Source: a virus
Lineage: Duplodnaviria; Heunggongvirae; Uroviricota; Caudoviricetes
DNA length: 23,876 nt
Direction: 5' to 3' (one strand)
Virus record (IMG/VR): IMGVR_UViG_2529292889_000002
The notes beneath the pieces were generated by a model that did not search any database, was not told where the DNA came from, and saw only the letters and a program-made list of their open reading frames with translations. Both the position numbers and the translations under genes were made by a program. Numbering within the stretch: position 1 is the stretch's first letter; each line of letters starts with the position of its first letter. This document shows, piece after piece, positions 723 to 3,604 of this stretch.

Positions 723-907
723 ACGCCACAATTCAAACGATACCAGAGCTTCTTATCCAGACACGAGGAAATCAGACCGAAGTGGCGAGGATGCTTTCCT
801 GCGCAAGAGGAACAGCGCTCAAGTACAACCGAGACAGCAAAGGCGAGCGTCACGCAATAGTTAACGGCGTCCTGATGGTAACGCCAGGCAAAAAGGGAAG
901 ACGATGA
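719..907 (+). CDS. ninH: NinH-like small protein (62 aa)
   Basis: Translation (…QTIPELLIQTRGNQTEVARMLSCARGTALKY…HAIVNGVLMV) resembles lambda NinH; lies immediately upstream of Q as in lambda; overlapping start/stop codons with neighbours. Confidence 0.65.
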   Translation: MNATIQTIPELLIQTRGNQTEVARMLSCARGTALKYNRDSKGERHAIVNGVLMVTPGKKGRR

Positions 908-1527
908 GACTCGAAAGCGTAGCTAAATTTCATTCGCCAAAAAGCCCGATGATGAGCGACTCACCACGGGCCACGGCTTCTGACTCTCTTTCCGGTACTG
1001 ATGTGATGGCTGCTATGGGGATGGCGCAATCACAAGCCGGATTCGGAATGGCTGTATTCTGTGGTAAGCACGAACTCAGCCAGAACGACAAACAAAAGGC
1101 TATCAACTATCTGATGCAATTTGCACACAAGGTATCGGGGAAATACCGTGGCGTGGCAAAGCTTGAAGGAAATACTAAGGCAAAGGTACTGCAAGTGCTC
1201 GCAACATTCGCTTATGCGGATTATTGCCGTAGTGCCGCTACGCCGGGCGCAAGATGCAGAGATTGCCACGGTACAGGCCGTGCGGTTGATATAGCCAAAA
1301 CAGAGCAGTGGGGGATAGTTGCTGAGAAAGAGTGCGGAAGATGTAAAGGCGTCGGTTATTCAAGAATGCCAGCAAGCGCCGCATATCGCGCTGTGACGAT
1401 GCTAATCCCAAACCTTACCCAACCCACCTGGTCACGCACTGTTAAGCCGCTGTATGACGCTCTGGTTGTGCAATGCCACAAGGAAGAGTCAATCGCAGAC
1501 AACATTTTGAATGCGATCACACGTTAG
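904..1527 (+). CDS. Q: Late-gene antitermination protein Q (lambda type, 207 aa)
   Basis: Translation is near-identical along its length to lambda Q as recalled (MRLESVAKFHSPKSPMMSDSPRATASD...CRDCHGTGRAVD...CGRCKGVGYS zinc-finger region). Ends with TAG. Confidence 0.9.
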   Translation: MRLESVAKFHSPKSPMMSDSPRATASDSLSGTDVMAAMGMAQSQAGFGMAVFCGKHELSQNDKQKAINYLMQFAHKVSGKYRGVAKLEGNTKAKVLQVLATFAYADYCRSAATPGARCRDCHGTGRAVDIAKTEQWGIVAEKECGRCKGVGYSRMPASAAYRAVTMLIPNLTQPTWSRTVKPLYDALVVQCHKEESIADNILNAITR

Positions 1528-1565: not shown

Positions 1566-1625
1566 AATATTGACTTTTTGAATAACTTTGGGGAAACTTG
1601 ACACCAATAATGGGCGTTTTTTACA
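1566..1625 (+). promoter_or_regulatory. pR'-like late promoter with qut-like region
   Basis: AATATTGACTTTTTGAATAACTTTGGGGAAACTTGACACC aligns with the lambda pR'/qut sequence as recalled (AATATTGACTTATTGAATAAAATTGGGTAAATTTGACTCA): -35 TTGACT at 1570-1575, 17-nt spacer, -10 equivalent GAAACT at 1593-1598 (weaker than lambda TAAATT). Confidence 0.5.
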
Positions 1626-2767: not shown

Positions 2768-2902
2768 TCCTTGACTTTTTTGTTTACTGTTTATTAAAAA
2801 ATCAACCGCATGGTGAATCCTCCTTGGAGGGGCTAAATGATCGAGTTTTAAGGGCACGTAGCGAGTTCTGTTTGATCATTGCAGAACTTAGCGGGAGGCG
2901 CC

Positions 2903-3013
2903 ATGCGTACATCACTAATGTTATTTCCTTCTATCATTTTCCTTGTGAGTTCTGGCTGCGCATGGCGCGGCCTTTTTTTTATGACCTGCCACTGGCAGAT
3001 GGTCATCCTGTGA
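2903..3013 (+). CDS. Candidate small ORF (36 aa; MRTSLMLFPSIIFLVSSGCAWRG...) with signal-peptide/lipobox-like N-terminus
   Basis: Strong SD (GGGAGG at 2893-2898) 4 nt before ATG 2903; hydrophobic stretch ending in SSGC. The ORF spans the intrinsic terminator at 2954-2980, so it may be a gene remnant or leader rather than a functional gene. Confidence 0.2.
   Translation: MRTSLMLFPSIIFLVSSGCAWRGLFFMTCHWQMVIL
2954..2980 (+). terminator. Rho-independent terminator (+ strand)
   Basis: GGCTGCGC-ATG-GCGCGGCC: 8-bp GC-rich stem (one G-U pair), 3-nt loop, followed by T8 (2973-2980). Confidence 0.6.
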
Positions 3014-3161
3014 TTTGATTCCGGTTCCGGCTTTTTAACTCTGTTCCTGTATACGGGAGAAATTCTATGTCGATTAATCGTTATGATATTGGTTACAAGA
3101 AGTACCACGTATTGTGTTGAGATAGAAAGCCTGGTGCCAGAGGTAAATGCAGCAGCATAAT

Positions 3162-3209
3162 AAAAAAGAGCCAGCGCAGAAGAGAACGGGTAAAAGAGTC
3201 TGCGCTGGC
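3162..3209 (-). terminator. Rho-independent terminator oriented for the minus strand
   Basis: Perfect 11-bp inverted repeat GCCAGCGCAGA (3170-3180) / TCTGCGCTGGC (3199-3209) with 18-nt loop. On the minus strand the hairpin is followed by UCUUUUUU (complement of 3162-3169); on the + strand there is no T-run after it. Confidence 0.5.
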
Positions 3210-3254
3210 GTGGGGATATTCCCCGTGGAGAAATGATATGTAACACACATCGGG
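3162..3254 (-). ncRNA. Candidate small RNA of about 90 nt on the minus strand (promoter plus terminator; no protein-coding potential)
   Basis: Minus-strand promoter-like elements: -35 TTGACA (complement of 3283-3288), 16-nt spacer, -10 TATAGA (complement of 3261-3266). Predicted transcript contains a GGGGA-AUA-UCCCC hairpin and ends at the 11-bp terminator. Purely sequence-based prediction. Confidence 0.3.
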
Positions 3255-3388
3255 AACCTTTCTATATAAACATTATCATTATTGTCAATCATAACAGTCA
3301 GGTATTATGACGTTTATGCATCAGGGCCATCAGGAATTAACTGGTGGCTTTTTATTGTTGTCAGCTTCCGGATAACGGGAGACGGGGT

Positions 3389-3604
3389 ATGTACCAGATG
3401 GAAAAAATCACAACAGGTGTGTCATACACCACGTCAGCGGTGGGGACGGGATACTGGCTACTGCAGTTGCTGGACAAAGTCTCCCCATCCCAGTGGGTGG
3501 CAATAGGCGTATTGGGTAGCCTGGTGTTTGGCTTGCTGACGTATCTGACAAACCTTTATTTCAAGATTAAAGAAGATAAGCGTAAGGCTGCGAGAGGTGA
3601 ATAA
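3389..3604 (+). CDS. S: Class II holin (phage 21 S-type pinholin), 71 aa with dual start (Met1/Met4)
   Basis: [71 protein letters not shown] closely matches S21 as recalled; two TMDs; 71/68 aa products; SD GGAGACGGGG upstream; stop overlaps the endolysin start (TAATG). Confidence 0.85.

Follow-up and report, generated by a model that had tools for sequence, protein, structure and literature searches.

A minus-strand locus upstream of a lambdoid prophage holin gene is very probably the gene of EcOnc32, an Hfq-dependent small RNA related by covariance models to Esr41

The 23,876-nt stretch of DNA analysed here (IMG/VR record IMGVR_UViG_2529292889_000002, 'the window') is the late region of a lambdoid prophage, 99.7–99.8% identical to prophage PP4 of the enteropathogenic Escherichia coli (EPEC) strain E2348/69. 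Our subject is the minus strand immediately upstream of its holin gene, for which a sequence-only reading had proposed a non-coding small RNA (sRNA) of ~90 nt. That core proposal is supported by published experiments on identical DNA: cross-linking followed by cDNA analysis (CRAC), Northern blotting and ligation and sequencing of interacting RNAs (RIL-seq). Taken as a whole, the evidence is very probably best explained by the locus being the gene of EcOnc32, an Hfq-dependent sRNA of lambdoid prophages. The RNA is not new: it has been known under this name since 2014, and its carriers are prophages Sp3/CP-933K of E. coli O157:H7 and PP4 of EPEC E2348/69. From the raw letters alone, the sequence-only reading had picked out a real regulatory RNA that is highly expressed.

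The transcript ('E2348C_1013' in EPEC) occupies positions 3161..3254 of the minus strand, with the 3' end at 3161 and the 5' end at about 3253–3265. The promoter elements that had been read from the sequence, hereafter promoter P2, are all present as placed: an exact -35 hexamer TTGACA (3288..3283, minus strand), a 16-nt A/T-rich spacer and the -10 candidate TATAGA (3266..3261, minus strand). The TTGACA is invariant across all promoter-bearing variants and aligns with the TTGACA of the sRNA Esr41, while the -10 candidate, which is without the consensus T at position 6, reads TATAAA in variants. At the far end of the unit lies a Rho-independent terminator hairpin (3170..3209, minus strand), the perfect 11-bp stem of which, GCCAGCGCAGA (3209..3199) paired with TCTGCGCTGGC (3180..3170), encloses in the minimum free energy (MFE) fold an 18-nt loop, CUCUUUUACCCGUUCUCU (3198..3181), a possible second seed. 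The U-rich terminator tail UCUUUUUUAUU (3159..3169, minus strand) follows and is the likely Hfq-binding 3' end. Since the plus strand continues after the hairpin as GTGGGGATAT (GTGGGG), the hairpin can terminate leftward, minus-strand transcription only, just as the sequence-only reading had it; in the whole window, only one other inverted repeat of hairpin type is perfect over 11 bp or more.

The 94-nt RNA (3254→3161) folds into three hairpins with an MFE of -34.9 kcal/mol and a z-score of -6.8 against dinucleotide shuffles. Stem-loop 1 (SL1; 3235..3251, minus strand; 7 bp, GAUGUGU-GUU-ACAUAUC) is separated by the 10-nt stretch AUUUCUCCAC (3225..3234, minus strand) from stem-loop 2 (SL2; 3212..3224, minus strand; GGGGA-AUA-UCCCC), which is conserved in Esr41; the terminator is the third. 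The 10-nt stretch is unpaired in the MFE structure and has an anti-Shine-Dalgarno sequence; we refer to it as seed 1. SL2, with its 5 bp (GGGGA/UCCCC), is the second small hairpin that had been described, and the statement that no minus-strand open reading frame (ORF) fits into the unit also holds: each of the three overlapping minus-strand ORFs (132, 72 and 51 aa) continues past the terminator, with none contained between it and the promoter. A search for tRNA and tmRNA genes in the window returned none. We also ran a generic promoter/terminator consensus scan but dropped it as support: it listed neither P2 nor the terminator, because TATAGA is without the T at position 6 and the terminator loop is longer than 8 nt, and its promoter-like matches were at chance level. 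What lifts the case above chance is conservation together with published expression data; the motifs by themselves would not have convinced.

A consensus scan also points to an alternative promoter, P1 (3272..3301, minus strand), which overlaps P2 and consists of CTGACT (3301..3296), an 18-nt spacer and GATAAT (3277..3272); in variants its -10 is GATAAT, TATCAT or TATAAT, with A2 and T6 always kept. Judged by homology with the Esr41 start, P2 would start transcription near 3253 and yield an RNA of ~94 nt, whereas P1 would start it near 3265 and yield ~105 nt. The start near 3253 is favoured by the Esr41-start homology and the invariant TTGACA. The start near 3265 is favoured by the Northern estimate of ~112 nt, which fits 105 nt better, and also by the neighbouring EcOnc13 having been sized at ~187 nt as compared to the 173 nt that RNA-seq assigns to PasD1, its EPEC homologue.

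The identification with EcOnc32 follows from coordinates. The Sakai gene ECs_0817 (901266..901664, minus strand) equals the ORF at window 2848..3246, so that window positions are Sakai positions minus 898418. EcOnc32 is listed as an Hfq-CRAC orphan binding site by Tree et al. 2014 (Mol Cell 55:199; Table S2) at Sakai 901574..901662 on the minus strand of prophage Sp3, which via the ECs_0817 offset falls on window 3156..3244; the sequence of the candidate RNA is identical in the window and in Sakai, as judged by covariance-search alignment, and thus sequence, strand and position all agree. The same study found EcOnc32 in five out of five Hfq-CRAC data sets, predicted its Rho-independent terminator and detected it by Northern blotting as a band of ~112 nt; its AUC (area under the curve) of 6.5e7 is, among the Table S2 rows examined, second to that of AgvB1 only.

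In EPEC E2348/69, where window positions are NC_011601 positions minus 1057452, the RNA was captured by the RIL-seq study of Pearl Mizrahi et al. 2021 (PMC8550237), filed as the coding sequence (CDS) E2348C_1013. The coordinate ranges given there for RNA2 are fragment 3' ends (table legend), and the most 3' end of E2348C_1013 in Table S3, 1060613, corresponds to window 3161: the RNA ends at the minus-strand intrinsic terminator. E2348C_1013 is RNA2 in 100% of its chimeras under both growth conditions (Table S5, fraction 1.0), i.e. it is always the second RNA, like bona fide sRNAs; the same table gives a longest U tract of 6, eight partners and no sRNA partners. It is also heavily Hfq-bound, being present in ~808,000 of 18.2 million Hfq fragments (~4.4%) in the virulence-activating condition (Table S3); in the part of this column that we compared, counts are lower for SroC (686,155), ArcZ (~146,000), Spot 42 (~129,000) and CyaR (~107,000). 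Its abundance depends on Hfq: the baseMean is 2064 and the log2 fold change in the hfq deletion is -2.9, a 7.5-fold drop with an adjusted p of 1e-23 (Table S2). With a baseMean of 5 in the EPEC RNA-seq data, the holin gene next door is silent, and EcOnc32 is thus made in lysogens while the late operon is off. We note the high Hfq occupancy of EcOnc32 (~4.4% of EPEC fragments) set against only eight significant partners.

One of these partners recurs in an independent data set. The RNase E-CLASH (cross-linking, ligation and sequencing of hybrids) study of enterohaemorrhagic E. coli (EHEC) by Waters et al. 2017 (Table EV7) contains the hybrid ECs0632 (entC)::EcOnc32, with 4 reads at a false discovery rate of 5e-6, recovered in both orientations. 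The CLASH read joins the entC Fur box, Shine-Dalgarno sequence and ATGGATAC to ATATCATTTCTCCACGGGGAAT, the single-stranded stretch of EcOnc32, and seed 1 is present in the EcOnc32 half of the hybrid. In EPEC, the entC 5' untranslated region (5'UTR) accounts for 263 RIL-seq chimeras with p = 4e-165 (Table S3). Two independent methods, each applied to a different pathotype, captured EcOnc32 ligated to the entC 5' region. Together these properties place it in the class of Hfq-dependent trans-acting sRNAs; the promoter is assigned by inference, and the experimental features come from published data tables for DNA of full or 99.7% identity. The published record consists of rows in supplementary tables: in the full-text literature we found no main-text mention of EcOnc32, ECs0817 or E2348C_1013, and nothing in the literature searched maps its 5' end, names a homologue or assigns it a function. 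EvrS, an sRNA described recently in CP-933N, is not the same RNA and was rejected.

As shown by covariance models run both ways, EcOnc32 is a diverged homologue of Esr41. At gathering thresholds, an Rfam search of the whole window gave no match; Esr41 and STnc100 appear only in a permissive scan. The covariance-model check suggested by the sequence-only reading is positive, but below threshold only: the Esr41 model (RF02676) matches 3160..3249 of the minus strand over its full length (positions 1–74), with E = 6e-4 and a score of 32.3 bits where gathering requires 102. The reciprocal model, which was built from six variants of EcOnc32 only, finds the true Esr41 locus with 31.7 bits and E = 5e-5, so that the similarity is significant, full-length and two-way. 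The two RNAs have TTGACA and an A/T-rich TATAnA as promoter elements in common, and their MFE folds have the same three-hairpin architecture: a 5' hairpin is followed by the single-stranded UUUCUCCA(U/C) anti-Shine-Dalgarno seed, a GGGG..CCC hairpin and a GCC(G/A)GC terminator with its U-run. The Esr41 (EcOnc14) seed, UUUUCUCCAU, is conserved with AUUUCUCCAC of EcOnc32 save for one central base (CCAC in EcOnc32, CCAU in Esr41). In a set of 9 distinct sequences, pairing holds for 96% of the cells, and four pairs change on both sides, as compared to none in slid controls; three pairs of SL1 change on both sides between EcOnc32 and Esr41.

The two RNAs also differ. The sequence of SL1 is not shared; the EcOnc32 terminator combines an 11-bp stem with an 18-nt loop whereas that of Esr41 is short, and the RNAs are 94–112 nt and 74 nt long, respectively. 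Esr41 adjoins iha on the island SpLE1, being located downstream of iha on SpLE1 / O-island 43/48 (PMC5286369), while EcOnc32 is situated between PasD1 and the holin gene of a lambdoid prophage. Esr41 is an Hfq-dependent sRNA that represses chuA, cirA and bfr and affects the enterocyte effacement locus (LEE) and flagella. Both RNAs have an iron-related target, although chuA, cirA, bfr and fliC/LEE are absent among the recorded partners of EcOnc32, for which the iron-related partner is entC. Kinship and the entC interaction in EHEC and EPEC suggest that lambdoid prophages and SpLE1 carry paralogous sRNAs that reshape iron acquisition. We found this kinship stated nowhere in the literature searched, and the 'Homologues' column of Tree et al. 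is blank in the EcOnc32 row. Zhu, Shabalina and Storz (bioRxiv 2026) report that cmscan matches to 'Esr41' are frequent near PasD; these matches are probably the EcOnc32 element.

How might the RNA act? Its function is most likely trans-acting, Hfq-dependent base pairing, for example by occluding the entC ribosome binding site (RBS). Leftward transcription in the lysogen and termination at 3161 yield Hfq-bound EcOnc32; the anti-Shine-Dalgarno seed would then pair across the entC Shine-Dalgarno sequence and AUG, which would repress enterobactin synthesis in the way that Esr41 represses chuA, cirA and bfr via the equivalent seed. For seed 1 with the entC Shine-Dalgarno sequence and AUG, a local duplex of -16.3 kcal/mol is predicted, with p = 0.003 relative to shuffled targets. 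Predicting full-length duplexes with the RIL-seq partners (RNAduplex) gave long structures riddled with loops, no better than those with shuffled targets; these were set aside, and only the analyses restricted to seed and loop were kept.

Besides entC, the Table S3 partners include the rpoS start region (537 chimeras), an IE2 region (72) and the dnaK 5'UTR (28). In the activating condition, all three partners other than entC carry perfect or near-perfect complements to the terminator loop. The rpoS fragment contains GAGAACGG, complementary to CCGUUCUC of the loop over a perfect 8 bp (shuffle p 0.04), and the dnaK fragment contains GGGUAAAA, complementary to UUUUACCC of the loop, again over a perfect 8 bp (shuffle p 0.012), in addition to GUGGAGA, which is complementary to the seed. 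The transcript of an nleB pseudogene contains CAGAGACGGGAAAAA, a complement to the 18-nt terminator loop (shuffle p 0.06). These hints suggest that the loop, which is unusually large, may serve as a second pairing site for rpoS, dnaK and the nleB pseudogene transcript. We tentatively put forward, as a possibility well short of probable, that EcOnc32 is a two-seed paralogue of Esr41, with the anti-Shine-Dalgarno seed shutting off enterobactin synthesis via entC and the loop seed pairing independently with rpoS, dnaK and effector transcripts. As its complementarity to the late transcript before the holin gene is perfect, one and the same highly abundant RNA could then link the iron and stress status of the host to the timing of prophage lysis.

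Several points weigh against the assignment and the proposed function, and against their parts. The Northern estimate of ~112 nt exceeds the 94 nt predicted from P2. The odds ratios of EcOnc32 in RIL-seq are modest (2.8 to 14), and some of its chimeras could be proximity artefacts, since the RNA is so abundant on Hfq. Half of its partners (4/8) are fragments of intergenic regions (IGR) or 3'UTRs, and as more than 67% CDS/5'UTR partners were required, this one criterion kept E2348C_1013 off the original authors' list of sRNAs. The Esr41 score of 32 bits compares with an Rfam gathering score of 102, which leaves EcOnc32 outside the family at threshold. The covariation comes from only 9 distinct sequences and is thin because nearly all of it stems from what is essentially one divergence event, the split between Esr41 and the rest. 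The loop-seed idea draws on three targets, for each of which shuffling by itself gives a p of between 0.01 and 0.06. Finally, the role in trans is inferred from chimeras and predicted pairing.

The genomic context bears on one of the alternatives. The gene for the Q antiterminator (904–1527, plus strand; PF03589, E = 4e-58) is directly followed by a lambda-like pR' promoter, TTGACT-TTTTGAATAACTTTGGG-GAAACT (1570–1598, plus strand). From this position of pR', the late transcript starts ~1.6 kb upstream of the sRNA, and the two genes located between pR' and PasD1, a membrane-protein moron and a DUF3927 gene, are morons within it. The class II holin gene (3389..3604, plus strand), the first lysis gene with the endolysin and Rz genes next, is identified by the annotation of near-identical or identical records. 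EcOnc32 is, as had been claimed, convergent with and fully complementary to the pR' late transcript crossing to the holin gene at 3389. Located downstream of pR' and between moron and lysis genes, it occupies the site at which the main text of Tree et al. 2014 describes convergent sRNA genes in Sp3, 4, 5, 9, 10, 11, 15 and 17.

This geometry raises the question of whether the main role of EcOnc32 is in cis: to damp or time the lysis genes, either by duplex formation and RNase III cleavage or by transcriptional interference. The arrangement of Q, pR', the convergent RNA and the holin gene fits such a role, as do the stress that Tree et al. lay on convergent sRNAs at this site in the eight Sp prophages and the great abundance of EcOnc32 in lysogens; moreover, the RIL-seq 'targets' of the related PasA are its own antisense neighbours, E2348C_0688 and E2348C_1246. 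However, no plus-strand partner from the locus is found among the significant chimeras (S-chimeras) of EcOnc32, in a setting where the late operon is silent (holin baseMean 5), and the homologue Esr41 is purely trans-acting and lies outside any late operon. The late operon being off in every data set, the missing plus-strand chimeras are not a real test. An antisense effect on the late transcript is thus geometrically possible, while all recorded partners of EcOnc32 are trans targets, and we consider it rather unlikely that the cis role is the main one. Quite unlikely, too, is that EcOnc32 mainly works by sponging up Hfq or competing for it, or in the manner of the anti-sRNAs AgvB and AsxR, instead of regulating mRNAs directly. 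This would account for ~4.4% of Hfq RIL-seq fragments yielding only eight significant partners, and EcOnc32 does have the same convergent moron-site position as the anti-sRNAs. AsxR/AgvB (EcOnc01-03) likewise are convergent, Hfq-bound and located at the moron insertion site downstream of pR'; in some Stx2 phages EcOnc32, like AsxR, lies directly 3' of stxB2 and is antisense to it. In other respects they differ: the anti-sRNAs are 51–60 nt long as compared to 94–112 nt, share a conserved 3' domain of ~42 nt and have other sRNAs as their targets, whereas EcOnc32 has no sequence match to them, a permissive Rfam scan of the region gives no AgvB or AsxR match, and Table S5 records no sRNA partners, i.e. 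neither the length, nor the 3' domain, nor the pairing with core sRNAs that mark the anti-sRNAs is found here. The entC interaction, reproducible across two pathotypes and two methods and covering the RBS, also argues for direct mRNA regulation.

More mundanely, the locus could be the 5' part of an mRNA for the annotated 132-aa 'hypothetical protein' (ECs_0817 / E2348C_1013; 2848..3246, minus strand), the annotation of which masks the sRNA and is antisense to PasD1. RefSeq annotates this CDS in hundreds of genomes, and still places it over EcOnc32 in about 600 complete E. coli genomes; it is also present in the original annotations of Sakai and E2348/69. Nonetheless, we find this explanation scarcely credible. 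At 40 to 85 nt from its start, the ORF contains a strong intrinsic terminator, to which RNA 3' ends map; the Northern band of ~112 nt compares with the at least 400 nt that the mRNA would need; the GTG start codon is at most 8 nt from the likeliest transcription start and has no Shine-Dalgarno sequence; neither this ORF nor the 72-aa minus-strand ORF hits a Pfam family at threshold; and most of the 132-aa ORF is antisense to PasD1. In diverged copies the frame is broken (annotated as frameshifted or incomplete by the Prokaryotic Genome Annotation Pipeline, PGAP) while the RNA elements are kept. The 132-aa ORF is probably spurious. Because of this annotation, the EPEC RIL-seq study filed EcOnc32 as a CDS, and one of the most abundant Hfq ligands of that data set was hidden from view.

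Facing EcOnc32 is its convergent partner, the STnc100-like sRNA PasD1 / EcOnc13 (2808..2980, plus strand), to which NC_011601 1060260..1060432 of Table S6 maps exactly; its match to Rfam STnc100, at 37.7 bits, falls short of the 47 needed for gathering. PasD1 is preceded by a promoter-like TTGACT (2771–2776), 17 nt and TTAAAA, and has a strong terminator at 2954–2972 followed by T8. On the other side, ~40 nt before the holin start codon, the plus strand carries a terminator-like hairpin of 11 pairs followed by TTTTTATTGTT (3323–3351), which may keep transcription that is not antiterminated from entering the lysis genes. At the PasA locus of E2348/69 prophage PP2 (L005), a comparable hairpin precedes the holin gene, and a near-identical sequence stands at the equivalent place of the PasC locus (L006), where an IS4-like transposase, not a holin, is annotated downstream.

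As judged by comparison of these loci, EcOnc32 lies directly upstream of the holin/lysozyme genes and on the strand opposite to theirs, in a slot that is elsewhere held by PasC and by a second PasA unit. The PasA locus contains two tandem minus-strand units, and the second (2265–2352), with its own TTGACA and GCCAGCG..CGCTGGC terminator, corresponds to the 3' part of the PasA species of 236 nt called 'minor'; by position, it is the true counterpart of EcOnc32 and PasC. Like the EPEC prophage sRNAs PasA and PasC, EcOnc32 is on the minus strand between a moron (esterase or PasD) and the holin gene, has the GCCAGCG...CGCTGGC terminator with the downstream flank TTTTTTATTATGCTGC.GGTGCATTTATCTCCAGCACCA, and both depends on Hfq and is expressed in the same cultures as they are (Pearl Mizrahi et al. 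2021; Zhu, Shabalina and Storz 2026). The likeness is confined to the terminator and 3' flank, which are all that align, while body and seed are unrelated: the six-variant model gives the second PasA unit and PasC terminator-driven scores of 16.5 and 16.2 bits (E ~0.09), which is no evidence for homology of the bodies. The proposed seed of PasA overlaps its terminator stem. EcOnc32 has not been named a Pas sRNA.

Set beside the PasD2-esterase-PasA arrangement, the window no longer has the esterase gene body; the deletion junction is at 3091/3092. Positions 2980–3091 are 93% identical to the sequence just after PasD2 plus the esterase start in PP2 of E2348/69, and positions 3092–3176 are 82% identical to the last ~70 nt of the esterase gene plus the terminator of the second PasA unit; window 2980–3176 is the scar of a deleted SASA-family (nanS-p-like) esterase gene. 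A 17-codon ORF (MSINRYDIGYKKYHVLC) with a GGGAG Shine-Dalgarno sequence (3067–3120, plus strand) spans the junction.

The EcOnc32 family is present in 603 out of 5,426 complete E. coli genomes, at an identity of at least 99% in 564 of them, and the 151-nt unit (window 3150–3300) is 100% identical in many of the O157:H7 genomes listed. The phage collection searched contains one copy, in phage Evi, to which 70 viral contigs add further copies. Using a degenerate pattern to scan one genome per species, we obtained two Esr41-type matches only, in E. coli and Shigella flexneri, and no evidence of the EcOnc32/Esr41 family outside Escherichia and Shigella. Variants are located downstream of stxB2 in Stx2, Stx2g and Stx2i prophages, downstream of DUF3927/TerB and, in one prophage, beside a gene annotated as DUF6645. 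A decayed copy lies directly downstream of stxB2 in an Stx2i prophage (NZ_CM143726.1; L004, 1491–1575); it is without the promoter and SL1, has stems with several wobble pairs or mismatches, and is likely a pseudogene, such decay of the stems in a promoter-less copy being as expected if selection needs transcription.

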